Source of the DNA: a virus
Lineage: Duplodnaviria; Caudoviricetes
Length of the DNA: 52,846 nucleotides
IMG/VR virus record: IMGVR_UViG_3300047457_000684
Location: 1-52,846 of that record
Direction: 5' to 3' (one strand)
Positions 1-52,846 of the stretch are shown here, piece after piece. The notes under the pieces are model-generated. The model ran no database searches, was not told the DNA's origin, and saw only the letters and a list, made by a program, of their open reading frames with translations. The number at the start of each line of letters is the position of its first letter. Position 1 is the stretch's first letter. Both the position numbers and the translations under genes were made by a program.

Positions 1-25
1 GTTCCACAACCATAGGCCTGGGGAA

Positions 26-424: not shown

Positions 425-486
425 GCATGCCGGTGCTGCTGTTCCGTCAGTCAACGGATGGCGAGTGACGTTCTGTGTACCGGTCT

Positions 487-564
487 GCCAGGTCGGCCCT
501 ACCGGTAACGCGGGCGCCGTGGTCGGCTTCGATGGGGCCACCTGAAACGGTACCGAAGGCCTGG
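487..564. other. Conserved structured intergenic element (candidate ncRNA), copy 1
   Basis: Retained at 48356..48434 although both flanks differ; CCAGGTC/GGCCTGG ends pair, internal GGCTTC-GAT-GGGGCC hairpin, TACCG/CGGTA pairing. Confidence 0.4.
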
Positions 565-596
565 CCCATAACCTGCAACCAACGGCCACTAGCCGG

Positions 597-977
597 ATGC
601 GGGCTCAGATCGTCGGCACTGAACTGCTCACCCGTCGATCATTTCGCGCCGACATCTTCCAGGCCTGGCAACACCGCTGCGCGTACTGCGGCGACCCAGC
701 ACAATCACTCGATCACATCATGCCCAAGGCCAGAGGCGGCCTCACCGTCCGTTCCAACCTGGCCGCAGCATGCCTCACCTGTAACCGCCGCAAGGGGCAC
801 AGGGAGGTGTTCTCGTGGTGGCGTGAGCAGCACTTTTGGTCCGAGATCGGTCAGTCACGCCTCATCGAATGGCTGACCTCAAACAACGAACAGTCAACAG
901 CAAACCCAGGCCCTTCTTCCCCTGGATCAGGAAAACCCATCCCGCAACGATCACGCGCCCAATGTTTGCAATCGTGA
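597..977 (+). CDS. HNH endonuclease (HNH-1, intact allele)
   Basis: CAYCG...LDHIMPKARGG...NLAAACLTCNRRKG. Confidence 0.9.
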   Translation: MRAQIVGTELLTRRSFRADIFQAWQHRCAYCGDPAQSLDHIMPKARGGLTVRSNLAAACLTCNRRKGHREVFSWWREQHFWSEIGQSRLIEWLTSNNEQSTANPGPSSPGSGKPIPQRSRAQCLQS

Positions 978-1336
978 CATGACGGCCCGCTCTGCCCTCG
1001 CCATCGCGGAATCTCTGGGCATGTATTCCGGTGCAATACACCGCGCCGTATAGCTGAGATCGCCTCCTTGGATCGCCCCAGCTGCCGCCCCAGTTGATAC
1101 GCCGGCAACTCACTGGTGAGCACCAACCTCACATCATCTGGCGTCAGCGGTGGCTTATTCCCACGCCCAACGCCACGAGCATGTGGCGCACGCCCTGGTT
1201 TAGGCCTTTCACCCTGCCAGACCGTCCAGCGAAAATCGCAGTCACGGCACCACACACGCTGACGCCTGCTGCCATTCAGCAACTTTCGGCTGTCAACCAC
1301 CTTCGTGCAACTACTACCGCAGCTCTTGCAGCTCAT
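851..1336 (-). CDS. Zn-ribbon plus HTH-like DNA-binding protein
   Basis: CKSC...TKVVDSR...CRDC (NrdR-like N-terminal ribbon), extra C-terminal Cys cluster; positional homolog at 50599..50943. Confidence 0.6.
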   Translation of the reverse strand: MSCKSCGSSCTKVVDSRKLLNGSRRQRVWCRDCDFRWTVWQGERPKPGRAPHARGVGRGNKPPLTPDDVRLVLTSELPAYQLGRQLGRSKEAISAIRRGVLHRNTCPEIPRWRGQSGPSCHDCKHWARDRCGMGFPDPGEEGPGFAVDCSLFEVSHSMRRD

Positions 1337-2148
1337 TCGATTTCATGCATTGGCTTGAATGTCATTCCCAGTGATTGCACTGATCGGCCCTGTCGTATCG
1401 CAAGGCTGATCGTTGATTCATCAACATGCAAGCTACGCCCAGCATCAGCGCAGCTCTGCCATATCCTCCCGGTTTCTATGCATTTAATCCTGAAGTCACC
1501 CATTCGTCGCGGATACTCAGAAGCGATGGTATCTGCTAGTTCACGATCCTCCAGCAGGAGAAACAATGCATCAGCACTGAAACCACCTAACACCCTAGGC
1601 ATCTCACGTGCTAATCTCCGCCATGATGATCGTTTGATGTAATGATAGCTTTTGACCTTCCACGGCTTGAGGCATTCACGAATCTGTTTCCGTTTTGCCC
1701 ATGCCCATATTCTCGAAGCAGGGCAGCCTAAAATCCTAGCCGTTGATCCAAGCGTCAGCCATTCACCGTATCGACTGCCGCACCGATACCCATTACGTTT
1801 CAACCACTCAGATACTGAATTTTCAGATCGCAATGGCCACCCACATTCAACAGCTCGCTTCAGCATTCGCTGCATCATGATAGGAAACGGCACATCATCA
1901 ATCATTGATTCAAGGAAGGCAATCTCATCGGCCGACCACTTGGTGGGCGGTGTCTTCGTTGTAATCGCGTTGCCATAACCTACTGCTATTCCAGAACGTC
2001 GTAACCGTGCTGCAATAGATTTTTTTGATCGTACTGGCCAGCTATTCAGCCTCGCCAGTTGTTCCATTCGTTCCACAATCTGATTGAACGACATCCGCTG
2101 CGCTAGATCCTCCAGCGCTTTGCGTTCTTCTGGTAGCCAGTTACTCAT
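1333..2148 (-). CDS. Hypothetical DNA-binding protein (repeated Trp-helix units, HTH-like C-terminus)
   Basis: ATGA-coupled ORF; homolog at 50940..51752; C-terminal IKCIETGRIWQSCADAGRSL resembles NUMOD1-like HTH. Confidence 0.65.
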   Translation of the reverse strand: MSNWLPEERKALEDLAQRMSFNQIVERMEQLARLNSWPVRSKKSIAARLRRSGIAVGYGNAITTKTPPTKWSADEIAFLESMIDDVPFPIMMQRMLKRAVECGWPLRSENSVSEWLKRNGYRCGSRYGEWLTLGSTARILGCPASRIWAWAKRKQIRECLKPWKVKSYHYIKRSSWRRLAREMPRVLGGFSADALFLLLEDRELADTIASEYPRRMGDFRIKCIETGRIWQSCADAGRSLHVDESTISLAIRQGRSVQSLGMTFKPMHEIE

Positions 2149-2876
2149 GCCACGCCCTCCAGCTCCAGAACCCGCGCCAACGGGATCGCTGCCACTTGCG
2201 GCACCACGGCATTGCCCAGTGCCTTCAGTCGGTCCATCCCGCTGGGTATCCCATCAGAGCCTCGGCATAGCTTGGGTGTACCAGGGGCGGGTCCGTCTCT
2301 GAGCATCTCAAACTCTCTGATGTTCTGACTCCGCGCCAGTGCGGGCTGCCAATGAATCGGTTTTTCGATGCACCCTTCCATTCGGTAGCTGTCGGGGTAG
2401 GAAATAGCCCACCAGCGATTGCGAACGTGCCAAGCTCCAAGATCGGCAGCTGATACGCATGCCCATTCGCAAGCACGCCCATCATTGGCCAGCTCTCCAA
2501 GAACAGCTGCCAACCCGTCAGAACAGATGCCTGCGACGTTCTCCATGACGAGGTATCTGGCTCCCACTTCGCGAACCACTCGGAGCAGTTCGTAAAACAG
2601 GCCGGAACGGGTCTCCAATCCAATACCAGCACGTTTGCCGGCGATCGAGACGTCTTGGCAGGGAAAACCTCCACACACAACGTCAGCTGATCCTGGCTCT
2701 GGTCTAAAGGTGCAGATGTCATCGTGAATGGGGACAGTGGGCCAGTGTTTCTTCAGGATGCGTTGGCAATAGGGATCCCGTTCCACAAACTGAACGGTCT
2801 GGAATCCACCGAGCCAGCGGGCGGCGAGGCTGAAACCGCCGATGCCGGAGAAGGTGTCAAGCAGGCGGAGGGTCAT
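2145..2876 (-). CDS. C5-cytosine DNA methyltransferase, main (alpha-like) polypeptide
   Basis: Motifs I (FSGIGG), IV (GFPCQD), VI (ENV), VIII (HVRNRW) and X (LKALGNAVVP); motif IX not found in this frame. Confidence 0.9.
   Translation of the reverse strand: MTLRLLDTFSGIGGFSLAARWLGGFQTVQFVERDPYCQRILKKHWPTVPIHDDICTFRPEPGSADVVCGGFPCQDVSIAGKRAGIGLETRSGLFYELLRVVREVGARYLVMENVAGICSDGLAAVLGELANDGRACEWACVSAADLGAWHVRNRWWAISYPDSYRMEGCIEKPIHWQPALARSQNIREFEMLRDGPAPGTPKLCRGSDGIPSGMDRLKALGNAVVPQVAAIPLARVLELEGVA
2225..2722 (-). CDS. Overlapping alternative-frame polypeptide (beta-like subunit) of the C5 MTase
   Basis: Nested same-strand ORF with FPTPTATEWKG and LVHPSYAEALMGYPAGWTD, resembling TRD and motif IX. 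Confidence 0.65.
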   Translation of the reverse strand: MTSAPLDQSQDQLTLCVEVFPAKTSRSPANVLVLDWRPVPACFTNCSEWFAKWEPDTSSWRTSQASVLTGWQLFLESWPMMGVLANGHAYQLPILELGTFAIAGGLFPTPTATEWKGASKNRFIGSPHWRGVRTSESLRCSETDPPLVHPSYAEALMGYPAGWTD

Positions 2877-2909
2877 GCCGCCACCTCCGCCTGCGCTGCG
2901 ACAAAACCT

Positions 2910-3143
2910 CTACATTTGCTCGTCGGTGTCGCTGAATTGTTGCTCGTACTCGGCGATGTGGTCCTCTGTCGCCTGCTCAGACAGGCAACTGAGCTGCAGA
3001 TCCAAGAACGTGGTGAGAGCGGCAAGATTGGCCACCATTTCAGACGCTTCAGGGCTGCTGGCATCACGAGCCAGCTGGGGGATCCAGTGAGCAATCCAGT
3101 CTTTGAGCGACTTCTTGGCGTTGAAGATCGTCGGGTGATACAT
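2910..3143 (-). CDS. Hypothetical protein (allele 1 only)
   Basis: MYHPTIFNAKKSLKDWIAHW...; start lies in one 29-bp repeat unit, ORF can extend to 3233. Confidence 0.45.
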   Translation of the reverse strand: MYHPTIFNAKKSLKDWIAHWIPQLARDASSPEASEMVANLAALTTFLDLQLSCLSEQATEDHIAEYEQQFSDTDEQM

Positions 3144-3207
3144 GGCAAGTTGAAGATCGTCGGGTGATACATGGCAAGTTGAAGATCGTCGGGTGATACA
3201 TGGCAAG
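3121..3207. repeat. Perfect tandem repeat, 3 x 29 bp (TTGAAGATCGTCGGGTGATACATGGCAAG)
   Basis: Units at 3121, 3150 and 3179, no spacers. Confidence 0.95.
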
Positions 3208-3237
3208 CGGTTAACGCTGCCTTCTATTGCCATTGGC

Positions 3238-4620
3238 TCATGCCACCCTCCCCCAGTGCCCCTTCGCCTGCCGCGCCGCCATCACATGCCGGGCCCAGCC
3301 ACGGGGGTTCTTCATGCCGCGACGTTTCCCGATATCCACCAGCTGCTCCAGCGTCTGCGCCTGGCCCTGTTCACGTTTCGCCTCTCGCCGCTGCACTTCC
3401 ACAAGCTCACCATCCACATGCACAAGCTCTCGACGCTCAGGCTGGAACTCGTGGCCGCAGTCCGGGCAAATCTGTTTCGCTGATGGCATCGCGGCGAAAC
3501 ACTTCGGGCAGACCCGCACGCTCGGGGCTGCCTGCCGGTCGCGCTTCGTCACGCCCTCCAGCGTCCATTCCCTCTCTTCGAGGTGATGGCCCAGTCGCTG
3601 GGTGTTCCCCACGTGGTCGAGGATCACCGCTTGCTTGCCCTCCTGTGGCCGCAGACAACGGCCGATCATCTGCAGGTGCAGGCTCAGCGATTGCGTTGGG
3701 CGCAGCAGAATGCAGCCGCTCACCGATGGCACGTCCACGCCCTCGCCGATCAGTGCGCAGCTGGTGAGCACCTTCAACCGGCCGGCGCCCAGGTCCGACA
3801 GAAGACGCTCCCGAGTGGCCGCATCCATGGTCCCGTCGATCGACGCGGCGGCCACGCCGTGACGATTGAACAACGCCGCCACCGCTGCGGCGTGGCTGAT
3901 GCTGCAGCAGAACGCAATCGCCGTCTGGCCCTCCAGATACTTCCGGTAGTGCGTTAGACAGTCGCCCATCGCTTGCCCCGTCTGCAGGGCCTGGCCGGCC
4001 TGCGTCATGTCGAAGTCGCCCATCCGCTTTCGCAGGCCACGCGCATCAAATCCGATCGGTGGCGCCAGCACACGCGCCGGGGCCAGATACCCAGCAGCCG
4101 TCAGCTCAGCTGGACTGGGGCCCATCACCATCGCTGAATACCACTCGCCAAGGCCTCGGCCATCACAACGGACCGGCGTTGCCGTCACACCCAGAACACG
4201 GGCACTGGAGTAGTGCGCCAGCACCTTCGCCCACGTGCCCGCGTTGCTGTGGTGGGCCTCATCCACCACCAACAGGTTGAACAACTCCTGGGGGATTCGA
4301 TGCAGCCGTCTGGCCAGGGTCTGCACTGAGGCCACCTGCACCGATGCCGACAGGTCCATCCCATGGCCCGCAGCGATCAGCCCATGGCGCACACCAAGGC
4401 CCCGCAGACTGGCGCTCGCCTGCCGTAGCAGTTCCTGCCGATGCACCAAGATGCAGATCCGTGAGCCCTTAGCCGCAGCCTGTTCGGCGATGTGGCTGAA
4501 TACCACAGTCTTACCGCCACCGGTCGGCAGCACGAACAGCACCGATCGATTCCTCGCCTGGTAAGCCTGGCGGATCTTGGCGACGGCTTCGGCCTGGTAG
4601 GGGCGGAGGGTGAGGGTCAT
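3238..4620 (-). CDS. SF2 (DEAH) DNA helicase with C-terminal Zn ribbon
   Basis: LPTGGGKT, DEAHH, GVTATP, QMIGRCLR, CPKC...CPDC. Confidence 0.95.
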   Translation of the reverse strand: MTLTLRPYQAEAVAKIRQAYQARNRSVLFVLPTGGGKTVVFSHIAEQAAAKGSRICILVHRQELLRQASASLRGLGVRHGLIAAGHGMDLSASVQVASVQTLARRLHRIPQELFNLLVVDEAHHSNAGTWAKVLAHYSSARVLGVTATPVRCDGRGLGEWYSAMVMGPSPAELTAAGYLAPARVLAPPIGFDARGLRKRMGDFDMTQAGQALQTGQAMGDCLTHYRKYLEGQTAIAFCCSISHAAAVAALFNRHGVAAASIDGTMDAATRERLLSDLGAGRLKVLTSCALIGEGVDVPSVSGCILLRPTQSLSLHLQMIGRCLRPQEGKQAVILDHVGNTQRLGHHLEEREWTLEGVTKRDRQAAPSVRVCPKCFAAMPSAKQICPDCGHEFQPERRELVHVDGELVEVQRREAKREQGQAQTLEQLVDIGKRRGMKNPRGWARHVMAARQAKGHWGRVA

Positions 4621-39942: not shown

Positions 39943-41217
39943 CTACGCCGCATCGCCGCTCGTGCCCTGGCGAACCTGGATTTCAACGCGGTTGGGATCA
40001 CCGATGTAAACAATCTCCGCGACGAACTCCAGCGCGAGCACCCGGAGTTCTTCATCGGTGGCGGCATCAAGAGCGCCCGATCTCATGAACACCTCAGCCA
40101 GCCCTTGCCAGTCAGGTCCTGATTCCGGTGGCGGCATTACCAACGACCGCTCCAGCCGTTCGATTGAATCATCCAGCCCCGGCACCCCCTGGTCCTGCAG
40201 CGCCCGTAGCTGCTCCAGCTGCCGCTGACGTTGCTGTTGCTGCTGATCCATAACCGGCGCTGCCGGTGCAGCGGCAACGGCGCCCAGCTGTTGTGCAGCG
40301 CTGCGCAATGCATCCACCAGTTGCCCGCGAATCTTGAACTCCGCCAAGCCACGCGCGTACCACTGGCACAAGTTGTTGCTGCAACGAAGCCGTGGTTTGC
40401 CTGCTGCCTGGATGTAGTGCATCCGCTTCCCGCAGCATCCGCAGCGCACCAACCCGGTAAGCAGGCGCACGGTTCGTGGTGACCGGATGCGCACCGCCTT
40501 GCGCTGGTCCAGCAGACGGCGCGCTCGATGCCATTCATCCCAGCTGATCAACGCCTGCACCCGATCGGGCTCGTTGTTCACCACGCCGCGCAGGATCGGG
40601 TTATTCAGCCACCGCCCCAGGCCTGGAATAGACCAGTCGAGGCGGCGCTGGCGGATCGTGCGGCCCAGCATGAACTCGTTGGCCTCCAGCGCATCCCACA
40701 GCTGCCGCGCCGCCTGAAACTCCGTTGGGTGTGGCGCCACCTGCGAGCCGTCGTAGATGTAGCCGTATGGCACACGGCCGCAGGCGTAGTGACCCTCGGC
40801 CTTGCGGCGTTTCAGGCCGTTGCGCACGTTGATTGATTTGATCATCGAATCGACCTCGTTCACGGTGGAGAGCACACCGGTCAGCAGCCGCCCTGCTGGA
40901 TCCGCTAGGTCGCTGGGCGTGCCATCCAGAAACCGCACGGTCACGCCTCGCCGGGCGCACATCCGCAGGAATGGGAGCTCTTCGCCGCGGCGACTGAGGC
41001 GCGACTGAGACACGGCGATCACCTCACGGCAGCGACCGGCCGCTACCAGGGCCTGCAGTTCCTCCCAGCCAGGGCGGCGTGCATCCTCCCGGTAGGCGGT
41101 GCCGCGCTCACGAATCACGCGATCGCAGCCGGCCGCCATCAGCTGCTGCACCTGGGCATCGATGCTGATGTCCTGCTCAGCCTTGTCGGTGGAAACCCTG
41201 GCGTAGCCAACGATCAC
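39943..41217 (-). CDS. Large serine recombinase (integrase)
   Basis: GYARVST, SRLSR, PYGY recombinase domain, LLTGLVRCGCCG Zn ribbon. Confidence 0.95.
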   Translation of the reverse strand: MIVGYARVSTDKAEQDISIDAQVQQLMAAGCDRVIRERGTAYREDARRPGWEELQALVAAGRCREVIAVSQSRLSRRGEELPFLRMCARRGVTVRFLDGTPSDLADPAGRLLTGVLSTVNEVDSMIKSINVRNGLKRRKAEGHYACGRVPYGYIYDGSQVAPHPTEFQAARQLWDALEANEFMLGRTIRQRRLDWSIPGLGRWLNNPILRGVVNNEPDRVQALISWDEWHRARRLLDQRKAVRIRSPRTVRLLTGLVRCGCCGKRMHYIQAAGKPRLRCSNNLCQWYARGLAEFKIRGQLVDALRSAAQQLGAVAAAPAAPVMDQQQQQRQRQLEQLRALQDQGVPGLDDSIERLERSLVMPPPESGPDWQGLAEVFMRSGALDAATDEELRVLALEFVAEIVYIGDPNRVEIQVRQGTSGDAA

Positions 41218-43772: not shown

Positions 43773-44018
43773 TCAATCCGTTGTGGTGGTTTGCAATACG
43801 CTCTCAACTTCACGCCTGATAGCATCAGGCACCATCGGATGTGATGGTCGCCAGCGGCTACCACACCAATGATCACCGCGCCATCGTGCTGTTTGATCCA
43901 GCAGCTTGCCCCTGGTGCCCCATTTTCGCCAGTGAATCAGATCAGGCATCGCAGCGGAATATCTGGTAACGATCCAGTGGTTGCCGCGATGGTCTTCGCC
44001 GTCCCAAAGTGTTGTCAT
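43773..44018 (-). CDS. Hypothetical Trp-rich protein
   Basis: Small ORF in the same array. Confidence 0.5.
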   Translation of the reverse strand: MTTLWDGEDHRGNHWIVTRYSAAMPDLIHWRKWGTRGKLLDQTARWRGDHWCGSRWRPSHPMVPDAIRREVESVLQTTTTD

Positions 44019-44136
44019 GGTGTCAACTCTTCCTCAATCAAACGTTCACATAATGCCCACCACACTGATGTGGCGATCGTTGCAATGCCAACAATCATCA
44101 GCACTGCAAAAATTTCGATGATGCCGGCTAGGTAAA

Positions 44137-44337
44137 TCATTTGGGCATCCACTCACCACACCACTGATCAACCGCAACATGGGGCCAGAATCCCCATGTC
44201 ATCGTTTCATTCTCTATGTCCAGCAACTCCGGCACAATCACAGGTGGCGAGATATGACACGACATGAGATTTTCTAGTTCCCCGCTCCATCTCAGCGGTC
44301 GGCTGAATTTGCAGTTCTCGCAGCGTTCCTCAGTCAT
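44137..44337 (-). CDS. Small Cys-containing protein
   Basis: CENCKF...CHISPP...WP.V..DQWCGEW. Confidence 0.6.
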   Translation of the reverse strand: MTEERCENCKFSRPLRWSGELENLMSCHISPPVIVPELLDIENETMTWGFWPHVAVDQWCGEWMPK

Positions 44338-44440
44338 CGACACTTCTCCCAGTTCGTAGGTGAACACTGATCAGCATAAACCTTATACAGCCAGCCGCTG
44401 AATGGCATAATCACCATCAGCGCGGCAATTAATGTGATTC

Positions 44441-44713
44441 TCATTGCTGCGTCTCCAATATCTGACGCCGCAGGGTGTCAAGACACGTTGCATTGACGCC
44501 ACCGCGATGCAACTCAGCACGCATGTGGTCGATCATTGCCACGATCTGACCCTGCTTTGATGCTGCACCCTGACGCCAAGCCGCCTGCACCGCCTGATCC
44601 TGGCTCAGCTGTTCACTAGCAGCAGCAATAGCCTGCTCGCGTTGTTCAATCTCCCGAGCAGCGGCCTCAATGATCGTATTGAGCTGCTGCCGCAGTGTGG
44701 TGAGGGTCGCCAT
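44441..44713 (-). CDS. Hypothetical protein
   Basis: Coupled to ssb. Confidence 0.6.
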   Translation of the reverse strand: MATLTTLRQQLNTIIEAAAREIEQREQAIAAASEQLSQDQAVQAAWRQGAASKQGQIVAMIDHMRAELHRGGVNATCLDTLRRQILETQQ

Positions 44714-45156
44714 CAGAACGGCACCTCATCAGAGCTGAGCCAATCCGGCTCGGTCTTGGCGGGTGCTGGAGCAGCGGCAGGTTGAGCCGCTGCAGCGGTT
44801 GCACCAGATTGCGGCTTGGCTACGAGCTCCCAGTTCTGCACCAGCACGGTTAGACCATGCTGTTCTTCCCCAGTGCGATCGGTCCAGCTCTCGATCTTCA
44901 CCTGGCCGCTCACGCTGATCAGGTCGCCTTTACTGACAGCATCAGCAAAGGCCTGTGCCTTTTCGCCCCATAGCTCCAGCTTGAAACCGTCCGGCTCTTT
45001 GCCATCGTCGCGCTTGGCACCAGGCTGGTTGATCAGGATTCGAGCATTACAAACGCAGTTGCCAGACTCGAAAAACCGGACTTCAGGATCACGAGCAAGA
45101 CGGCCCACGAAATGCCACTGGCTGGCGCGCAGCAGCTGCTTAATCAGTTCGTTCAT
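44713..45156 (-). CDS. ssb: Single-stranded DNA-binding protein
   Basis: GRLARDPEVRFFESG...KGDLISVSG; acidic tail DEVPF. Confidence 0.93.
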   Translation of the reverse strand: MNELIKQLLRASQWHFVGRLARDPEVRFFESGNCVCNARILINQPGAKRDDGKEPDGFKLELWGEKAQAFADAVSKGDLISVSGQVKIESWTDRTGEEQHGLTVLVQNWELVAKPQSGATAAAAQPAAAPAPAKTEPDWLSSDEVPF

Positions 45157-45183
45157 AACGGTGGTGTGGTTTCGGAAGTGCAG

Positions 45184-46023
45184 TTATGCCGCCCACGCGG
45201 CAGGAAGATCGCCTGGGTCTTCGGCGCCGTTGCAGCGCGCCACGGTTTCGGCGCTTACGCCGGCGCTGGCCAGCCGCTCCAGCGTCGCCTTAGGCAGCTG
45301 GTCCAGTGTTGATGCTGCTCCATTGCTGATCTCGCCGATCAGTGCCATCAAGCCATCATCCGAGAGGCCAGCATCAGCACAGGCCGCATAGGCGCTGGCG
45401 ATCAGCTCAGCCGTTGGCTCTGCTGCTGGAGCTGGAGCAGGTGGTGCCTCAACGACCGTCACCGGTACGACATCACCACCGCCTAGTTCCTCTGGTGTGT
45501 ACGCCGTATGGCCACCGAGAGCGTCTGGGCAATGGGTGCGTATCCCGGCCGTGAGCGCCCTGGAGAACAGCATCGACTCTGGGTACTTCTTCCAGATCGA
45601 CTTGTCCGCCAAGCCGGCACGCCTGGCCATCTCAATCGTGAACTCGCTCACGCCCATCGGCTTGCCGTTGGCGGTGAACTGGATTCGGCAGGTGGTCGCT
45701 GTGTTCTCCAGCACTTGGTAGTCGTACACCGGATGACGGCGGACGGCCTGGGCCAACAGGTTGGAGCTGAACGCCGGCTTGCCCTCAATGATGTGCACGC
45801 CAGTGGCCGATGCAAACGGGCTGAATCCTGCCTCCATACCGGCCATCAGCCGGATAGCGCATTCAGCTACCTGCGTTTCTTGGTTGCCATTACGGCCAAA
45901 CAAGCCTGATGCGGCAAACACCCGCGCTAGGCGGGCGAGATCGTCGACGCTCTGAACCTGAAGGCTCAGAGTTGGTGTGGTGGCGTTTGGCGCCGTTAGC
46001 GCCGAGCTGGTTGGTGGTGCCAT
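45184..46023 (-). CDS. RecT/Red-beta-like single-strand annealing recombinase
   Basis: GVHIIEGKP...FTIEMARRAGL...WKKYPESML.SRA; next to ssb; start moved to ATG 46023. Confidence 0.75.
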   Translation of the reverse strand: MAPPTSSALTAPNATTPTLSLQVQSVDDLARLARVFAASGLFGRNGNQETQVAECAIRLMAGMEAGFSPFASATGVHIIEGKPAFSSNLLAQAVRRHPVYDYQVLENTATTCRIQFTANGKPMGVSEFTIEMARRAGLADKSIWKKYPESMLFSRALTAGIRTHCPDALGGHTAYTPEELGGGDVVPVTVVEAPPAPAPAAEPTAELIASAYAACADAGLSDDGLMALIGEISNGAASTLDQLPKATLERLASAGVSAETVARCNGAEDPGDLPAAWAA

Positions 46024-46158
46024 GCCGGTGTGCGTGGTTCCCGTACAGTAGCAGTTCACTTCCAAAACCGCACGGATCTCCCAGTGTTTCACCACGAAAA
46101 CCACTCCGCCACTAATGCATACAAGTGTTCTAGAACCGGCGCCAGCGGTTCCACTGCC

Positions 46159-46326
46159 ATGCCAATCACCGTCAACTGCACCACCCGCCAGCAGGTCGAT
46201 TCCCTCTGGCGCATGCTCTGCCATGTCCCTGATGGGGACTTCGAGCCTGTGGTGGTGCAGCTGGAGGGCAAGCTGCTCTATCGCATCATTCGCGCGAACG
46301 GCGAGCAGACAACAGTTCCGCTCTGA
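46159..46326 (+). CDS. Small hypothetical protein
   Basis: MPITVNCTTRQQVDSLW...; 3' part of ORF 46030..46326. Confidence 0.4.
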   Translation: MPITVNCTTRQQVDSLWRMLCHVPDGDFEPVVVQLEGKLLYRIIRANGEQTTVPL

Positions 46327-47035
46327 GCTCCGCAGGGCCGTAGCGGCCGACCTGATCGCCGCGAATCACCCGGATCATCTCGGCCAGTGCTGCCATCTCA
46401 AGCTCCAGCTCGCCGGGGCTGAGCAGCGCATCACCGAGCACGATCCGTCTCAGCATCTGCTGCCGGCCAGCGGACTGCGACGGATAGGCCTCGGTGAACG
46501 CCTCCATGGCTTCGCGTGGCGCCCATCCCTGTTCACGCGCCAAATCCTGAAGAAGGTCCGACAGCTGTCGGGTTGCGTGGCTCGATTCAGCTGGCGACAT
46601 CGCCTCACCGAGATACGGCAGCGTGAGCCGGCCAGCGGCCACCATCGCCAGATCGCCCAGATCCAGCGGGTGGCCAGCGTCGTCAGCCTTGGGCAGCCAC
46701 ACCGCAGCGTCAAGCCACTCCGGGTGAACGCCCCAGTTTGAGTGAGGGCCAAACTGCCTGATGGCGGCTTCTGGCCCTTGGGTCTGCCAGGTCCAGATCG
46801 CTCGATTGGCCTCCGCGAGCGAGTCGAGGTATTTCAAACCCACCGGCCGAACGTGGCGCGCATTCCGCAGGCGGCTGAGCTGGCCGCCAACGATGCCGGT
46901 TGGCTCGCCGTACGCCCACTCCAGAATCGTCGCCATCCGTTCCTGGCTGAGCGGCACCAGCCAGCGGCCGACCAGCTGGCCGATGGCGAGGACGCCACGG
47001 TTCAGGCGCTCCTGTGCGGTTTCGGATCTGTCCAT
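46286..47035 (-). CDS. Hypothetical protein, possible HTH regulator
   Basis: LSQERMATIL...GGQLSRLRNA weakly XRE-like; start uncertain. Confidence 0.55.
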   Translation of the reverse strand: MDRSETAQERLNRGVLAIGQLVGRWLVPLSQERMATILEWAYGEPTGIVGGQLSRLRNARHVRPVGLKYLDSLAEANRAIWTWQTQGPEAAIRQFGPHSNWGVHPEWLDAAVWLPKADDAGHPLDLGDLAMVAAGRLTLPYLGEAMSPAESSHATRQLSDLLQDLAREQGWAPREAMEAFTEAYPSQSAGRQQMLRRIVLGDALLSPGELELEMAALAEMIRVIRGDQVGRYGPAELRAELLSARRSRE

Positions 47036-47077
47036 GGTTGGGAAACGCTGTGGTTCCACAACCATAGGCCTGGGGAA

Positions 47078-47476
47078 TCACTGTGGAAATCCCAGGATGC
47101 GCTGTGCGTCAGAAACGCTGCGCACGATTCCAGAACACCCGCCAGCACTGGCCACATGGTCCAGAAAACGCTGCTGTTCCGGAGTTGCACGGCCTGTTGA
47201 TGACTTCACCTCCAGCGCCACGAACTGCGCGATGCCGTTCGTGGTGCGGTAGCCGATCAGGTCGGAGGATCCGACGCACAGCCCCGCATGGAGCGGTCGC
47301 CCGTTACGAACCACCACGTCACCAGGCCGCAGTGCTGCTGCTACGGCGCGGATATTGCCCGCTGAGACCCGTGTGGATGGCCCAGCCCAGCCGGTGCCGA
47401 CGTTGTTTCTCCACAGCCGGGCGTCTCCATGACCGCAGGCCATGAGGATGCGCTGCTGGGTTTCGTGTTCGCTCAT
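47078..47476 (-). CDS. VRR-NUC domain nuclease (allele 2)
   Basis: Same length as and near-identical to 26..424. Confidence 0.85.
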   Translation of the reverse strand: MSEHETQQRILMACGHGDARLWRNNVGTGWAGPSTRVSAGNIRAVAAALRPGDVVVRNGRPLHAGLCVGSSDLIGYRTTNGIAQFVALEVKSSTGRATPEQQRFLDHVASAGGCSGIVRSVSDAQRILGFPQ

Positions 47477-47681
47477 GCCGTCCGTGCGTTTCCGACAGTC
47501 AACGGATGGCGAGTGACGTTCTGTGAACCGGCCCTGAGGTGGCGGTGATGCCGTCAGGCTGTGCGCAGCAACAGTAGGCAAACGAAACTATTCCATCGAA
47601 ATGACGGCAGTTAGCTATACGTTAGTAGCGTATAGCATAGCGGCATGTTATATTTTCTAGGTTGATAGAATCGCAAATCAA

Positions 47682-48302
47682 ATGGCGGATCCCCGCAGCG
47701 CTGAGTACAGCCGCCGCTACCGCGAGCGCAAGGCCGGCCGGCTGCCTCCTCCCACGCTGCCTAAATGCCTGACATGCGGTAAGGAGCACAGGGGCGCACG
47801 CGGTCAATACTGCTCTAGATGCTGGCTGAAAACAGAAGAAGGGCGAGAATGGCAGCGGAATAGAGTTAAAGACTTTCGAGTCAGCAATCCTGAGTCAACG
47901 GCAAGAAATACGTTTGAAAACAACCGCAAGCGGGGGGCATTCCGTCGGGCTGGTCGCCGCAAAGCACTGGTGCCACTAACGCGAGAGCAGCTAAGAGCGC
48001 GATTTGCGTTGTTTGGAGATTCATGCGCCTACTGCGGTAAAGGTGGGAAGGTGTCAATTGATCATGTCATGCCACTGAGCAAAGGCGGGCTAGACGAATA
48101 CAGAAACGTTGTGCCAGCTTGCAAAACATGCAACAGCAGCAAGAACGCAAAAGACGTACAAGCTTGGTATTTACAGCAGCCGTTCTTTTCGCAGGCAAGA
48201 TGGGCAAGGCTACAGCGTCACTGTGTAGAAAGAGTTTGCGGTCAATTGTCATTGGCAATTTCGGATGCGACGCAACAAGCCAGATTGGAAGCTGTCACCT
48301 GA
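47682..48302 (+). CDS. HNH endonuclease (HNH-2) with N-terminal Zn finger
   Basis: CLTCG...CSRC; CAYCG...IDHVMPLSKGG...NVVPACKTCNSSK. Confidence 0.9.
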   Translation: MADPRSAEYSRRYRERKAGRLPPPTLPKCLTCGKEHRGARGQYCSRCWLKTEEGREWQRNRVKDFRVSNPESTARNTFENNRKRGAFRRAGRRKALVPLTREQLRARFALFGDSCAYCGKGGKVSIDHVMPLSKGGLDEYRNVVPACKTCNSSKNAKDVQAWYLQQPFFSQARWARLQRHCVERVCGQLSLAISDATQQARLEAVT

Positions 48303-48310
48303 CCAATTTC

Positions 48311-48333
48311 GCCCCTCACCCGAGGGGCTTTTT
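48311..48333 (+). terminator. Intrinsic terminator of HNH-2
   Basis: GCCCCTC-ACCC-GAGGGGC-TTTTT. Confidence 0.85.
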
Positions 48334-48355
48334 CATGCCGTGCCACACTGGCACC

Positions 48356-48434
48356 GCCAGGTCGGCCCTACCGGTAACGCGGGCGCCGTGGTCGGCTTCG
48401 ATGGGGCCGATCTGTAACGGTACCGAAGGCCTGG
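48356..48434. other. Conserved structured intergenic element, copy 2
   Basis: Homolog of 487..564 with a longer hairpin GGTCGGCTTC-GAT-GGGGCCGATC. Confidence 0.4.
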
Positions 48435-48437
48435 TTA

Positions 48438-49916
48438 CTACGCAGGCAATGACAGCTGCTGCCACTGGCTGGCTGTGACTGTGCGGGCAACGCGGCGTTT
48501 TGGCCTCGCTGCAGCAGGCACAGCAGGACAGGTAATCGCCTCTAGCTGGTGCATGCCAGCTCCCATTGGCGCCGGGGCCATAGGGATCACGGCATCGGGC
48601 TTGGCACGCCGCAGGATGTTCACCGCTGCGTTGTGGTCGGCATTCATCGTGTGCCCGCAGCTGGTGCAGCGGAACAGCGACTGGCTGACGCGGCTGGCAC
48701 CGTCAACCACGCCGCACGCTGGACACGAACGGCTTGTATTGGTAGGGCTGACGCGCTCCACCGTGCGACCCAGGTCGCCAGCCTTCGCCTCCAGCATCGA
48801 ATACAGCCCGCCAATCCCTGCATCATGCAGTGCACGGTTCAGGCCAGCCTTCGACGCTGCATTGTTCGGCAGGTATCCGGTCCCATCCTTGTTCGGCTTT
48901 GCCGCCGGCCGCCGCACCATGTTCGCCAGCTTTAGATCCTCAACCACCACCGTCCCGTAGGTACGCAGCAGGTAGGTAGTGGTCTTGTGAGCGAACAGCT
49001 TTCGCGTGCGCCGGATTCGCTCATGCAGCAGCGCCAACTTCGCCACGGTCTTTTGCCAGTTGGCGCTGCCCTTCTGCTGCCGTGCCATCTGCTGTTGCAG
49101 CCGCTTCAGCTTGCGCAGCCCAGCAGCCAAAGCCGCAGGGCCGTCAATGTGCTTCCCGGTGCTGGTGGTGAGCGTGTGCGCCACGCCAGCATCGATACCA
49201 ACCGCTAACGACGTCTCGCGCACCTTCGGCGCTGCCACGTTGCCCACCAGCAGCAGATACCAGCCGGAGGGCTCGCGGCTCACCCTGAAGGTGCAGCACT
49301 CCAGACCGTCGGGCCATCGCCGACCATCACGGTTGCCCTTAATCCGCAGCTCGCCCAACACCGGCAACTTCACGATGTCGCCATGCACCGCCGTGGATTT
49401 CTTGCAGTCCTGATCGCTCAGTGTGGTGATCGGAAACCGATCAGACTTGAATCGCGGCATCTTCCGCTTGCCCTTGCGATACTCGCCCCACGCCGTAGCA
49501 AGAGCCTTCAGCGTACCGCGCAGCAGATTGTTGGGGCAGCCCTGCAGCTCCGGCCAGCTGGGGTGGTTCTTCTTGGCGAAGAACGACGCCAGGCTGAAAT
49601 AGCTGTCATTGCTCAGCCGCGGCTGCCGGTAATCCTGCGGGATCGGACAGCTCAGGCCGGCGCGACGATGCGTCCTGATCGTGCTGTATGGGATGGCCTG
49701 CCAGCTGTCGTCCGGGGCCTTCTGCCAGCGGTAGGACCACGGCACCGGGCAGCAGGGCGCTAGGGCCTTATCGGCTTTGTTGTAGTGACTGAAGGCCTCG
49801 ATCTCCTGCAGCAGGGCTAGGCCGTAGTTCCAAACCCGCCGCTGGAGCAGCAGCCAGGCCTCCAGCTGAGCCTCCTGGCTGCGGGTTGGGTAGGCTCTAA
49901 ACTCCAATGTGCGCAT
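48438..49916 (-). CDS. TnpB/Cas12-like RNA-guided RuvC nuclease, 492 aa (compact type V / V-U-like effector)
   Basis: MRTLEFRAYPT N-terminus; RuvC-I VGIDAG, RuvC-II VVEDL, CPAC...CTSC Zn finger, RuvC-III NADHNAAVNI; AAGGGG RBS before ATG 49916. Confidence 0.92.
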   Translation of the reverse strand: MRTLEFRAYPTRSQEAQLEAWLLLQRRVWNYGLALLQEIEAFSHYNKADKALAPCCPVPWSYRWQKAPDDSWQAIPYSTIRTHRRAGLSCPIPQDYRQPRLSNDSYFSLASFFAKKNHPSWPELQGCPNNLLRGTLKALATAWGEYRKGKRKMPRFKSDRFPITTLSDQDCKKSTAVHGDIVKLPVLGELRIKGNRDGRRWPDGLECCTFRVSREPSGWYLLLVGNVAAPKVRETSLAVGIDAGVAHTLTTSTGKHIDGPAALAAGLRKLKRLQQQMARQQKGSANWQKTVAKLALLHERIRRTRKLFAHKTTTYLLRTYGTVVVEDLKLANMVRRPAAKPNKDGTGYLPNNAASKAGLNRALHDAGIGGLYSMLEAKAGDLGRTVERVSPTNTSRSCPACGVVDGASRVSQSLFRCTSCGHTMNADHNAAVNILRRAKPDAVIPMAPAPMGAGMHQLEAITCPAVPAAARPKRRVARTVTASQWQQLSLPA

Positions 49917-49922
49917 GGCCCC

Positions 49923-49951
49923 TTGCCATCTGACGCGCATCGTACTACGAT
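49923..49951 (+). promoter_or_regulatory. Sigma70-type promoter for the RHH gene and possibly the array
   Basis: TTGCCA-17 nt-TACGAT; ATG 49958 lies 7 nt after the -10 box. Confidence 0.7.
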
Positions 49952-49957
49952 TGGAAC

Positions 49958-50137
49958 ATGGCTGAGGGGGTTCGGATCCAGCTTGTCGTTCCTGAAGGAC
50001 TGGCGACCGCTCTACGCGAGCGTGCAAAAGCCGAAGGGCGCACCGTCTCCAATCTGGGGGCGTTCCTACTGGAAACCGCACTCCGTCAACTACCTCCCCT
50101 GTTCGGGGGCTCGCCTGGGTTGGACCGGGAGAGTTGA
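49958..50137 (+). CDS. Ribbon-helix-helix (CopG/Arc-like) regulator, 59 aa, probably leaderless (not in ORF track)
   Basis: Manual translation MAEGVRIQLVVPEGLATALRERAKAEGRTVSNLGAFLLETALRQLPPLFGGSPGLDRES. Confidence 0.85.
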   Translation: MAEGVRIQLVVPEGLATALRERAKAEGRTVSNLGAFLLETALRQLPPLFGGSPGLDRES

Positions 50138-50140
50138 AAC

Positions 50141-50260
50141 GCCTGCCCCTGGCCGCTTGCGGTGTCAGCAGGAAGCCACCTCAGTGGCATCTGCTCCCAT
50201 GGGGAGCACCCATCCCACAACGATCACATGCCCTCGATCGTTAGCTCATTTCCTGAGCTG
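50141..50260 (+). ncRNA. Candidate tracr/scaffold RNA
   Basis: Consecutive hairpins: CCTGC...GCAGG, GCCAC/GTGGC, TGCTCCC/GGGAGCA, AACGATC/GATCGTT, AGCTCA/TGAGCT; CCCATC complementary to the repeat's GATGGG. Confidence 0.45.
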
Positions 50261-50312
50261 CGCGCAGATGGCCCTGAAAGCCACTGCACTGCAACGGTTT
50301 TCAACACAGGGG
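50258..50312 (+). promoter_or_regulatory. CRISPR leader-like sequence
   Basis: CTGCGCGCAG palindrome and TGAAAGCC...GGTTTTCA dyad just before the first repeat; recalled as resembling cyanobacterial leaders. Confidence 0.5.
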
Positions 50313-50465
50313 GTCTCTACTGTTGCTCTTGGGCAATAAGAAAGGGCTGATTCAGCAGTCTCTACTGTTGCTCTTGGGCAATTGATGGGCAACGGTGGGC
50401 AAGTGAGTGCTCGACACCAGGCAGGCCTGGTCTCTACTGTTGCTCTTGGGCAATTGATGGGCAAC
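50313..50465 (+). CRISPR. Mini CRISPR array, repeat GTCTCTACTGTTGCTCTTGGGCAATTGATGGGCAAC (36 bp)
   Basis: Truncated repeat 50313..50337 (first 25 nt), 20-nt spacer, full repeat 50358..50393, 36-nt spacer 50394..50429, full repeat 50430..50465. Confidence 0.88.
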
Positions 50466-50627
50466 CTCACCGTCCGTTCCAACCTGGCCGCAGCATGCCT
50501 CACCTGTAACCGCCGCAAGGGGCACAGGGAGGTGTTCTCGTGGTGGCGTGAGCAACCCTACTGGAGCGAGCTTGGGCAGGCCCGCCTGATCGACTGGATC
50601 ACACATGCGTCCAGGTCTTGCGGTTGA
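50466..50627 (+). pseudogene. 3' remnant of HNH-1
   Basis: 50466..50554 identical to 741..829; lacks the CAYC and DH motifs. Confidence 0.85.
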
Positions 50628-50943
50628 CGATCCTGCTCACCGTGGCGGGGGCAATGCCGTATTCGGCAGCCAGCTGGTAGTTCGGCACGCCATCAGCAGC
50701 CTGCTGCCGCATCCGCCTTACGTCTTCCTCCAGCAGCACCGCAGCACCATTACGGCTGCCCGGCGCCTTCGGTCGCCCCAGCTGCGTGCCTGGCACGGGG
50801 CCAGGCTTGGTTGAGAACGGCCGCTCGATGGTGCGCTGCCTGAACCCGCAGCGACACCGATACCAGCGGTGCGTGCCATCGCTACGACGTTCGGTAACAA
50901 TCACCCGTAGCGCATTCACTGCGCCGCACTTCGGGCAGTTCAT
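50599..50943 (-). CDS. Zn-ribbon plus HTH protein (allele 2 counterpart of 851..1336)
   Basis: CPKC...YRCRC; LAAEYGIAPATVSRIV. Confidence 0.7.
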   Translation of the reverse strand: MNCPKCGAVNALRVIVTERRSDGTHRWYRCRCGFRQRTIERPFSTKPGPVPGTQLGRPKAPGSRNGAAVLLEEDVRRMRQQAADGVPNYQLAAEYGIAPATVSRIVNRKTWTHV

Positions 50944-51752
50944 TTACGACGCAATAATTCAAACGTCAGTCCCAACACTGGTACTGACCGGCCTTGCACA
51001 ATCGCATTGCTAATCGTTGCATGTGATACATGCAACTCACTTGCAGCAGCAGTCTGACTAGGCCATACCCTCCCAGTCTCTATGCACCGCACTCGATAAT
51101 CACTACTCCGCAATGGATGCTCACTGGCAACCTGTTCGGCCAACTCACGATCTTCCAGTAACGCGTATAACTGATCTACGCTGTATCCTCCAAGGATATG
51201 AGGCATCTCATGCGCAAGACGTCGCCATGCTGACCGCTTGACATACCACACATTACCAACCCTCAACGGCTCCAGTATCCTCTTAACTCCGTGCTGATGT
51301 ATCCATTTATTGACGCGTGAGTTTTTACAATTCAATATCTCAGCAACGACTCCAGTTGTTACCCACTCACCATTACGACCGCTGCACTGGTGACCCAGCT
51401 TGTATAGACGCACTGCAATCGCCTTAGGTGTGCGTACCGGCCAGCCGTGTTCCGCCGCTCGCTTTGCCATACGTTTGCACAGCAACGGAAACGGGACATC
51501 ACCAACGATTTTCTCAAGATACGCAGTCTCATCAGCTAACCATTTAGCCGCTGGTATTTTCGCTGTAATCGCGTTGCCATAACCTACTGCTATCCCAGAC
51601 CGTCGTAACCGTGCTGCAATAGATTTCCGCGTTCGTACTGGCCAGCTATTCACCTGGGCTAGCTCAGTCATCTGTTCCACGATCTCATCGAATCGCATCC
51701 GCCGCGCCAGATCCTCCAGCGCTTCCCGTTCTTCTGGCAGCCAGTTACTCAT
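50940..51752 (-). CDS. Hypothetical DNA-binding protein (allele 2 homolog of 1333..2148)
   Basis: Shared MSNWLPEER...SIAARLRRSGIAVGYGNAIT...LLEDRELA. Confidence 0.7.
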   Translation of the reverse strand: MSNWLPEEREALEDLARRMRFDEIVEQMTELAQVNSWPVRTRKSIAARLRRSGIAVGYGNAITAKIPAAKWLADETAYLEKIVGDVPFPLLCKRMAKRAAEHGWPVRTPKAIAVRLYKLGHQCSGRNGEWVTTGVVAEILNCKNSRVNKWIHQHGVKRILEPLRVGNVWYVKRSAWRRLAHEMPHILGGYSVDQLYALLEDRELAEQVASEHPLRSSDYRVRCIETGRVWPSQTAAASELHVSHATISNAIVQGRSVPVLGLTFELLRRK

Positions 51753-52734
51753 GCCACCCTCCCCCGTTAAACAGTGTTTGTTGCTCATTGCCAATGCAGG
51801 CAGGCGACAGCCAAAGCCGCTCGCGGCGGCCGTTGAAGCTGTTAGTGCTGTAGCCAGCGCCTCCGCCCGCCTTGCCCTCAGTCACGGTCCAGCCGTGGCT
51901 CAGCAGCGGGTCGTGTTCGTCGTCGTAGCCGCAGAGGATGATCCGCAGCTCACGCGGTGCAGTGATGCACCACTCGCGCACGGCGATGGCGACATCACCA
52001 CCGGCATGGGCATAGAGATCGCCGCTGGTGGCGTAGGGCGGGTCAAGGAATATGGCGCGGCTGCCATCTCCTCCTGTCCCCGATCGGATTACGGATGGTT
52101 TCACCACCCGTTCCCATGATCCGCAGGTAATGCGCACGCGATGCAGCCGATTCGCCAACGCTTTCAAGTAGGCCTGCAGTTGGCCTCTCCCGGCGTTGCC
52201 CAGGTGGGGCAGCTCTCGATTCACGCCTTGCCCGGCGTCGCCCAGGTGGGGCAGCTCTCGATTCACGCCTCTCCCGGCGTCGCCTACTTTCCGCAGGTGG
52301 CCATCGACGACCCGCCACGGGCCAGGGCCGAACGGGTCACCGATGCCGCAGGCCAAGACGTATAGCCACCAGCCTGCGGCCTTCGCGTCGTGCGCTTCAG
52401 GATCGCCCTCCAGCCATGCCACAAGGTCGGGCGTTCGGCGTTCTTGTAGCCAGGCCAACCGGGCGTGATAGTCGATCTCCGCCACCGGACCCCATGCCGC
52501 AGCGGCGACGGCATCAGGGCTTAGCTGAATCGCGCGCCAGGCATTGATCAGCCAGCCGTCGACATCGTTCAGGGTCTCGACGCGGCGGCCCGTGAATGGC
52601 GGGCGGGCCAGCAACACGGCGGCAGATCCGGCGAACGGCTCGACATAGCCGGACGGATCACCCAGCGCCTGCCAGATGCGCGGCGCGGCGCGGCGTTTGC
52701 CGCCGAAATATGGAAACGGTGCAGCGAGAGTCAT
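51745..52734 (-). CDS. N6-adenine DNA methyltransferase (D12/Dam-like)
   Basis: PYFGGK, EPFAGS, ND, FLDPPY. Confidence 0.9.
   Translation of the reverse strand: MTLAAPFPYFGGKRRAAPRIWQALGDPSGYVEPFAGSAAVLLARPPFTGRRVETLNDVDGWLINAWRAIQLSPDAVAAAAWGPVAEIDYHARLAWLQERRTPDLVAWLEGDPEAHDAKAAGWWLYVLACGIGDPFGPGPWRVVDGHLRKVGDAGRGVNRELPHLGDAGQGVNRELPHLGNAGRGQLQAYLKALANRLHRVRITCGSWERVVKPSVIRSGTGGDGSRAIFLDPPYATSGDLYAHAGGDVAIAVREWCITAPRELRIILCGYDDEHDPLLSHGWTVTEGKAGGGAGYSTNSFNGRRERLWLSPACIGNEQQTLFNGGGWHE
52189..52284. repeat. In-frame 42-bp tandem repeat (about 2.3 copies) inside the adenine MTase
   Basis: Encodes GDAGRGVNRELPHL-GDAGQGVNRELPHL-GNAG. Confidence 0.9.
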
Positions 52735-52846
52735 GCCACCCTCCCCCAGTGCCCCTTCGCCTGCCGCGCCGCCATCACATGCCGGGCCCAGCCACGGGGG
52801 TTCTTCATGCCGCGACGTTTCCCGATATCCACCAGCTGCTCCAGCG
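52731..52846 (-). CDS. 3' end of the SF2 helicase (partial, second copy)
   Basis: Identical to 3238..3353. Confidence 0.9.
   Translation of the reverse strand, partial: LEQLVDIGKRRGMKNPRGWARHVMAARQAKGHWGRVA

Follow-up and report, generated by a model that had tools for sequence, protein, structure and literature searches.

We analyzed a complete virus record (IMG/VR IMGVR_UViG_3300047457_000684; 52,846 bp, estimated completeness 100%; the whole stretch is called the window below) and found at positions 48435-50465 a compact cassette built around c2c8, a gene for a TnpB-derived RuvC nuclease of the little-studied type V-U2. The cassette combines this nuclease with a short CRISPR array and, very probably, with a scaffold RNA that resembles a trans-activating CRISPR RNA (tracr-like). 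That the DNA following the last repeat is used as a guide, for exclusion or homing, is a more tentative proposal, to which we give somewhat less than an even chance. The statement as a whole, that a mobile V-U2 cassette acts against phages without it, perhaps by homing, we regard as evenly balanced. The cassette reads as follows:

48435-48437: left junction, 3 nt past the c2c8 stop codon; homology to 487-564 ends at 48434.
48438-49916, minus strand: c2c8 (type V-U2 effector, TnpB-derived RuvC nuclease), 492 aa, identified with Pfam and NCBIfam; single copy in the record.
49923-49951, plus strand: sigma-70-like promoter site (TTGCCA-17-TACGAT) just before the start codon of the next gene; a consensus match only.
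49958-50137, plus strand: ribbon-helix-helix (RHH, CopG-like) gene, 59 aa (Pfam RHH_5, 1.2e-12); its last 9 codons overlap scaffold helix 1.
50109-50208, plus strand: putative scaffold RNA (tracr-like) with five helices (50109-50134, 50142-50172, 50152-50163, 50175-50188 and 50192-50208).
50209-50232, plus strand: scaffold tail with the anti-repeat, predicted to pair with the 3' part of the repeat (window duplex, -12.9 kcal/mol).
50233-50312, plus strand: leader-like stretch that separates scaffold and array; the pre-array stretch of a relative (L032) shares 83% identity with 50244-50326.
50313-50337, plus strand: partial repeat, the first 25 of 36 nt, without the 3' part that pairs with the anti-repeat.
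50358-50465, plus strand: repeat (50358-50393), 36-nt spacer (50394-50429) and repeat (50430-50465).

An earlier note on this DNA had described the unit from its letters, and all the parts that it listed were present: the nuclease gene, an RHH gene on the opposite strand, two identical 36-bp repeats around a 36-nt spacer, and a hairpin-rich stretch, which proved to be a conserved five-helix RNA.

The C2c8 protein matched the Pfam families OrfB_IS605 (1.5e-25), Cas12f1-like_TNB (3e-19) and HTH_OrfB_IS605. The catalytic D-E-D residues and the zinc finger had been described as intact; in an alignment with 20 relatives, D242, E326 and D427 as well as C398, C401, C417 and C420 were invariant, and the three acidic residues aligned with the catalytic motifs of ISDra2 TnpB. 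The Cys-rich N-terminal insertion (CCPVPW...CPIP) is real and a trait of the family: C55, C56, P57, W60, C90, P91 and C127 were conserved in at least 90% of the sequences. The window protein scored 362.4 bits with the NCBIfam model V_cas_c2c8 (NF038192), a narrow margin over the cut-off of 350; for comparison, the effector of cyanophage CL131 scored 450.8 bits and P0077 404.1. It failed the IS200_TnpB (NF038281; 167.4 versus 425 bits) and IS607_TnpB (NF038280; 129 versus 350 bits) models, passed the generic guided_TnpB model (239 versus 100 bits) and showed only a weak likeness to Cas12f2 (64 bits, cut-off 450). The nearest solved natural structure by sequence was ISDra2 TnpB (8.7e-26; PDB 8EXA/8BF8), and an AI-designed RNA-guided nuclease scored slightly higher.

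Relatives were drawn from viral, genome and metagenome collections. The protein search returned 188 of them, one of which (53% identical) is named C2c8 by NCBI, and an effector 99% identical to that of the window is encoded on another metagenome contig (L031). Among GenBank phages, cyanophage CL131 had the best match, its "transposase" (31.7% identity). A quick maximum-likelihood tree, rooted at the midpoint, was computed for 45 proteins derived from the loci; in it the window protein fell within a clade of 37 rows (SH-aLRT 90) together with every scaffold-bearing locus and the CL131 effector, whose branch is long. Eight ordinary TnpB rows lay outside this clade. Thus, by profile search and phylogeny the protein scores above the C2c8 cut-off and does not group with ordinary TnpB, which supports the earlier suggestion of a C2c8/V-U2-like system, a TnpB-to-Cas12 intermediate. 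The window combines the marks of V-U2: an NF038192 score above the cut-off, a RuvC D-E-D triad with zinc finger, an array without adaptation genes, and membership in the CL131 clade.

The absence of cas1, cas2 and tnpA, previously noted, extended to profile searches of the whole record: Cas1, Cas2 and Y1 TnpA gave no match, and a tyrosine integrase profile gave none anywhere in the record, each search having produced matches in control genomes. The record therefore contains neither the cas1-cas2 adaptation module of canonical adaptive CRISPR-Cas systems nor the partner transposase of IS200/IS605 and IS607 elements: there was no Y1_Tnp match, and the only Resolvase match is a 424-aa recombinase.

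The scaffold RNA was recognized as a stretch of ~105 nt (window 50100-50215) that recurs among the relatives. An alignment of 28 copies contains 30 base pairs in five helices, 17 of them with compensatory changes. In this alignment 96.8% of the cells were paired, versus 37-49% when the partners were slid by 1-3 columns, and none of 500 shuffles reached any of the observed pairing measures. The frequent G-U pairs are compatible only with the plus strand, opposite to c2c8. We built a covariance model from the 28 copies and ran it over 33 sources. Its sole match in the window was 50100-50229 (+), with 132 bits, the top score of all copies. It also matched directly 3' of c2c8, on the strand of the gene, in 14 distant members including CL131 (E 5e-13 to 0.02), and gave no match in the four ordinary TnpB loci searched. 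All told, 9 close and 14 distant relatives have a scaffold 3' of the gene. Judging by the distant members, the scaffold originally lay 3' of the gene, where TnpB has its guide RNA. In the window the model found nothing 3' of c2c8, where a TnpB-style scaffold would lie. An Rfam scan of 47000-52000 at E<=1 returned no family, CRISPR-DR families included.

The 24 nt that follow helix 5 vary across loci in step with the 3' part of the local repeat, the part that sits just before the near-constant ...GCAAC repeat end. For 14 scaffold/array pairs, cognate duplexes had a mean of -13.2 kcal/mol and non-cognate duplexes one of -11.1; only 1 of 10,000 partner permutations was as low, with modest individual ranks (window 7/14, L034 14/14). 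The CL131 tail and repeat form a predicted duplex of -20.5 kcal/mol, a value reached by 5 of 1000 shuffled tails (-11.2 +/- 3.0). This complementarity of the tail to the repeat's 3' part is why we consider the scaffold tracr-like. On this computational evidence, scaffold and tail would have the anatomy of a tracrRNA-like partner; the hallmark of tracrRNA-dependent type V systems, a structured RNA with an anti-repeat, was thus found computationally in the window.

The window scaffold is itself chimeric. Its helix 1 is closer to upstream copies (0.89 versus 0.75 identity) and its helices 2-5 are closer to array-linked downstream copies (0.94 versus 0.75; 0.77 versus 0.61). Genuine upstream or downstream copies mostly keep to one type over their whole length. 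The pattern would fit an exchange between two inverted scaffold copies.

Across the family, a divergent upstream scaffold was present in 23 related loci and a second scaffold 3' of c2c8 in nine. Arrays follow the upstream scaffold in 11 loci and in the window, and the downstream scaffold in 5. In the close clade, 16 loci carry at least two repeats beside a scaffold; among the distant loci, repeats at 57-77-nt spacing follow the scaffold in about 12 of 14, the exceptions being L014 (no repeats) and L016 (a tandem-repeat pattern instead). Array linkage is thus shared by homologs near and far. Repeat counts range from one (L010, L036) up to ten (L012), and regular arrays of 5-10 spacers occur in L012, L035 and L041. 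The earlier observation that the array lies upstream of the nuclease and diverges from it was confirmed; it had been set against the 3' guide RNAs of TnpB, and here the picture changed, as the divergent arrangement is derived within one subclade and the position shared family-wide is the TnpB-like one, with the scaffold 3' of the gene. The divergent array is a recurrent arrangement of this subclade and is not peculiar to the window phage. Where upstream scaffolds lack an array, they pass into flank DNA right after their ...AAC end; in the clearest case (L033), the flank matches window 21.2 kb from its first base. One or two tandem scaffold-like copies also lie upstream and divergent, besides the 3' copy, in L046 (41-172, 175-302) and L047 (182-313). 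These two are distant members (42% identity), so scaffold duplication is not limited to the subclade of the window.

In the window, RHH gene, scaffold and array form one divergent unit. In 12 related loci the RHH gene is divergent from c2c8 and ~40 nt upstream of it; these are all 11 other members of the 12-row clade of the window and L042, with a mean column identity of 82%. In relatives with shorter proteins it is absent, and the scaffold comes straight after the c2c8 start. The promoter-like site is unique in 48200-50800 (shuffled sequence, mean 0.4 sites). On the simplest reading, the RHH protein would regulate the 41-bp divergent control region and both of its promoters.

The 36-nt repeat has a predicted hairpin of -8.5 kcal/mol and no further copy elsewhere in the 52,846-bp record. 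Array content differs even between near-identical systems. The scaffold of L031 is identical up to position 116 and is then followed by another 35-nt stretch, which replaces the leader-like stretch there and in run X5, and by three repeats, two of them of a variant type. Its spacers, of 11 and 41 nt, differ from that of the window. By this comparison, array content appears to change much faster than the effector protein.

We then compared the surroundings of c2c8. Only window 48535-50215 is common to the window and its relatives, and the flanks of the relatives match other parts of the window: 20.7-23.3 kb (L007, L008, L033), 12.7-13.4 kb (L042) and 3.2-9 kb (L009). Thus, the cassette occupies different loci in related phages. 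Moreover, the two ends of the window contig are two versions of one region, 1-483 matching 47053-47531 (91%), 487-564 matching 48356-48434 (96%), 740-872 matching 50465-50597 (90%) and 1883-2160 matching 51487-51762 (80%). Only one version contains the cassette:

565-977, plus strand: cassette-free version of the site; 565-739 is where the cassette stands, and an intact 126-aa HNH gene occupies 597-977.
48356-48434: left flank of the cassette, 96% identical to 487-564; summed depth far above that of the surroundings in runs X1 and X3.
50466-50627, plus strand: 3' remnant of a small HNH endonuclease gene, starting exactly after the last repeat, in the terminal-guide position; Pfam HNH, C-terminal part only.

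In the cassette version, the 2030-bp cassette stands in place of 175 bp (565-739) that include the 5' half of the HNH gene, a gene that 27 related phage loci carry whole. On the right, cassette and last repeat end at the same base (50465): 50465-50554 is identical to 740-829 (90 nt), after which 30 of 43 positions match. At the left junction, contigs of runs X1, X3 and X4 diverge at 48435. Since both flanks match the cassette-free copy, the unit boundaries proposed earlier, 48435 and 50465, are real junctions. A contig of run X1 joins 48434 directly to 50465 at depth 14 (cassette pieces, 19-42), and run X3 shows a similar joint; filled and empty forms therefore co-occur. Run X5 carries the L031-type array variant. 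The unequal depths suggest that two strains may have been joined in one contig.

Two other features of the junctions were considered and set aside. A direct match between 48427-48441 and 50423-50437 (13/15) is no better as a recombination scar than other short chance repeats, and the repeats do not derive from the HNH reading frame, as the intact HNH genes of 27 loci lack such sequence.

Targets were found for a relative. L041, whose effector is about 64% identical to that of the window, has a 28-nt repeat type. Its spacer 2 (first 20 nt used as query) hit six viral contigs, four at 33/33 and two at 31/33, inside a methyltransferase/DUF4942 gene; its spacer 4 matched two of the same contigs at 32/34. 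GGC stands directly 5' of seven of these eight protospacers and GAC before the eighth. This last protospacer (L097 5477-5510, spacer 4) has the look of an escape variant. A search of IMG/VR with the first 20 nt of one L012 spacer found nothing. The first array spacer of L033 (2316-2348) matches 27/27 nt at 2636-2662, 300 nt downstream on the same contig and without a preceding GGC; it is either a self-derived spacer or the trace of a former flank.

The candidate protospacer-adjacent motif (PAM), GGC, also occurs at the empty site. In the empty HNH allele, GGC (738-740) precedes the sequence that matches the post-repeat flank, so that a potential target starts at 741; in the cassette version, the same flank is preceded by AAC, the end of the repeat. 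At this position, 25 intact HNH loci have GGC (12), GGG (12) or GGA (1), and the first 20 nt after the motif differ from the window flank at 2-9 positions.

Taken together, these results suggest the following mechanism. RHH gene, scaffold and array would be transcribed as one RNA from the promoter-like site. The scaffold would pair with each repeat and load C2c8, with the guide 3' of the repeat, the arrangement of type V systems and TnpB. This would give two guides, the spacer at 50394-50429 and the flank after the last repeat. The flank guide would target the empty HNH allele, preceded by GGC; as AAC instead of GGC stands before the flank in the cassette version, self would be spared. C2c8 would then cut co-infecting relatives that lack the cassette. 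The outcome could be exclusion, or recombination could copy the cassette in, which would amount to homing without a transposase; a phage-encoded RecT-like protein, part of the phage's own recombination functions, would be available for this step.

A stronger form of this proposal, which we put forward as possible and hold still more loosely, is that the cassette is a transposase-free RNA-guided homing element of phages and a living link between TnpB and CRISPR. Every scaffold end would read outward into the flank, and alleles carrying GGC and the flank sequence would be cut in mixed infections. Extra repeat-spacer units would aim the same nuclease at unrelated competitors. The two inverted scaffold copies of close relatives would allow the RHH-c2c8 segment to invert, and such inversion would explain both the arrays on either side of the gene and the chimeric window scaffold.

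Several points weigh against the proposal of a mobile cassette directed at cassette-free phages. Among 15 sequencing runs listed, no RNA run contained the stretch, and the transcription, processing and strand of the scaffold-array RNA are predictions from sequence. The array is minimal and irregular, with one truncated repeat and one spacer, and no protospacer turned up for that spacer: there was no second match in the window at <=3 mismatches, only chance-level partial matches in GenBank phages, no exact 18-mer or 20-mer match in IMG/VR, and nothing in five related virus records. GGC as a motif was derived from L041 and may not hold for the window effector. A match between flank and empty site is expected of any insertion; only the coincidence of junction and repeat end, and the PAM, go further. 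Nor is the event a clean insertion: 175 bp gave way to the cassette, and on the c2c8 side a scaffold is missing where close relatives carry one. The junction is supported only by the window contig and by runs X1 and X2, which have a word share of 0.97 and may represent the source sample. Finally, the contig may be a two-strain chimera or a real duplication; if a duplication, the terminal guide would be self-targeting.

The rival that survives best, though we judge it unlikely, is a plain phage-borne CRISPR-like weapon or defence against competing phages or mobile DNA, placed by ordinary illegitimate or homologous recombination and followed by a merely incidental flank. The methyltransferase/DUF4942 targets in other viral contigs are what such a weapon would have, as are the regular arrays of 5-10 spacers in L012, L035 and L041 and the turnover of array content between the window and L031 with its 99% identical protein; the replacement of 175 bp also suits it better than a clean insertion would. 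It does not account for a cassette end that equals the repeat end to the base, for a flank target with the inferred PAM in the empty allele, or for the array-less and single-repeat scaffolds (L010, L036) that read straight into their flanks.

It is improbable that the unit is a decaying remnant that has been stripped of its gene-proximal scaffold and the greater part of its array and has ceased to function as a guided nuclease. A single truncated repeat, one spacer with no target in the collections searched, and the lack of the scaffold that nine close relatives have 3' of c2c8 could be read in this way. Against decay, the c2c8 and RHH open reading frames are intact, all catalytic and zinc-binding residues are kept, and all five helices are retained in a scaffold that holds the top covariance score (132 bits); the array on the RHH side recurs in 11 other loci, and a 99% identical effector persists in another metagenome.

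We find it more improbable still that C2c8 is an RNA-guided regulator that binds DNA without cutting, or that it forms a toxin-antitoxin pair with RHH as the antitoxin. A regulatory role of V-U effectors is raised in the accessible part of the CL131 paper and its sources (PMC6293099), and the available text of PMC10691335 reads an archaeal RHH/MazE-TnpB pair as toxin-antitoxin. The archaeal group carries a D-to-H change in RuvC-III, whereas the RuvC triad of the window protein is intact; the window RHH gene is divergent rather than upstream in one operon, and spacers of relatives match foreign phage genes at a constant 5' motif. An ordinary TnpB element of IS200/IS605 or IS607 type, with an omega or right-end element RNA (reRNA) at the 3' end of tnpB and unrelated repeats, can practically be dismissed: the guided_TnpB score, the ISDra2 structure and the 3' scaffolds of distant relatives recall one, but both IS-specific models failed, no Y1 transposase accompanies the single-copy gene (the only serine recombinase is of integrase type, 424 aa, and 7 kb away), no window scaffold lies 3' of it, and the scaffold tail covaries with the repeats.

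The kind of system described here is already known. C2c8, or V-U2, was reportedly defined by Shmakov et al. in 2017 as a TnpB-sized RuvC effector, mostly cyanobacterial, linked to arrays and without an adaptation module. A V-U2 system in cyanophage CL131 has been in print since 2018, and the earlier note overrated the novelty of the window in this respect. According to the accessible text of that report, the CL131 effector was assigned to putative type V-U2, had 10 spacers, and came with no tracrRNA that could be found (PMC6293099). We confirmed 11 repeats of 36 nt downstream of its effector gene. Window and CL131 share a phage-borne TnpB-like effector, 36-nt repeats, the lack of other cas genes, the C2c8 model and the clade, and in CL131, too, the scaffold model matches, directly 3' of the gene, with a tail that pairs with the repeat. 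They differ in protein sequence (31.7% identity) and layout: in CL131 the 11 repeats lie downstream on the strand of the gene and there is no RHH gene, whereas in the window scaffold and array are divergent and fused behind RHH.

What is new is the conserved scaffold with its anti-repeat, the RHH-scaffold-array unit, the differing loci, and an empty site with an exact repeat-end junction. The freely available main texts searched contained no description of a V-U2 scaffold RNA, RHH partner, mobility or homing. In the part of a 2024 review available to us, V-U2 (C2c8) is the one original "V-U" group that still stands without a Cas12 letter, size, PAM or guide description (PMC11641405). This locus family offers a guide architecture that can be tested, 5'-GGC as a candidate motif, a conserved RHH partner, and natural filled and empty sites in one community. 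It ranges from fused single guides that read into flanks, through single repeats, to arrays of up to 10 repeats, which is the series expected if arrays arose from TnpB guide RNA. Both the TnpB-to-Cas12 transition and RNA-guided inter-phage homing thus become testable with a compact 492-aa nuclease.

Other systems resemble the cassette in part. With ISDra2 TnpB it shares the catalytic motifs, and it would also share a guide 3' of a structured scaffold, a scaffold end that is the element end so that flank DNA acts as the guide, and a motif 5' of the target. Unlike IS200/IS605 TnpB, the window gene has no TnpA and is single copy, its scaffold is split into a tracr-like part and repeats, relatives have multiple spacers, and the family has an extra Cys-rich N-terminal insertion and a C-terminal tail. 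Like Cas12f and Cas12n, the system joins a small TnpB-like effector to a short array and a predicted non-coding RNA that contains an anti-repeat, and its candidate PAM likewise lies 5'; it differs in its weak sequence likeness, its inferred GC-rich GGC motif and a scaffold placed behind an RHH gene. The proposed logic is akin to that of free-standing homing endonucleases of phages and of "transposon non-restorative homing" (PMC13565253), in which a nuclease encoded beside a conserved gene cleaves the allele that a co-infecting relative carries, after which repair transfers the nuclease gene; the cassette likewise sits among HNH endonuclease genes. Here, by contrast, the target would be chosen by RNA and self would be spared by loss of the PAM. 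The archaeal RHH/MazE-TnpB group also places a TnpB relative consistently beside a small RHH protein; in the text available, its RHH gene lies upstream in the same direction, its RuvC-III carries D-to-H, and it forms an archaeal clade (PMC10691335). The window departs from that group (Altae-Tran 2023) in its divergent RHH gene, the retained D427 and the fusion of RHH to the guide-RNA unit.

The rest of the record is that of a freshwater tailed phage: it encodes a terminase, portal, head protease, major head protein, tape measure, helicase, primase and RecT-like annealing protein, with a G+C content of 52-66%. Megablast of window 44000-52846 against GenBank phages gave no match and no close phage. 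Two genes bear on the life style and recombination of the phage:

39943-41217: serine recombinase, 424 aa, with recombinase zinc ribbon, integrase-type; the only Resolvase match in the record, ~7 kb from c2c8.
45184-46224: RecT-like single-strand annealing protein, 2 kb from the cassette; adjoins a VRR-NUC nuclease gene (47078-47581).

The label "temperate" would follow from this serine recombinase, its only basis, and the label "cyanophage" from close homologs on contigs of Cyanobium metagenome-assembled genomes (L013, L015), likewise its only basis; both are provisional.

The contig repeats itself at its end: its last 116 nt (52731-52846) match 3238-3353 without a difference, and 47053-52730 covers the region of 1-3237 a second time in diverged form. 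Probably, the assembly ran through two strain variants of a circular or permuted genome of ~49.5 kb. A strong fold is predicted for the 79-nt left flank of the cassette (-48.5 kcal/mol for 48340-48437), and in other contigs it is followed from 48435 onward by several different sequences; the element may represent a small RNA or a hotspot of recombination. As a candidate relative of the scaffold it was rejected, having no covariance-model match and being absent from other loci. The cassette version of the region also has an extra 824-bp segment (47532-48355) with a 206-aa HNH gene (47682-48302) and a terminator, absent from the left version (483/487); a contig of run X5 skips 47532-48354. This segment looks like a free-standing homing-endonuclease polymorphism beside the cassette. 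Further along, 2145-2876 and 51745-52734 encode unrelated methyltransferases, a C-5 cytosine methylase in the left version and a D12-class N6-adenine methylase in the right.

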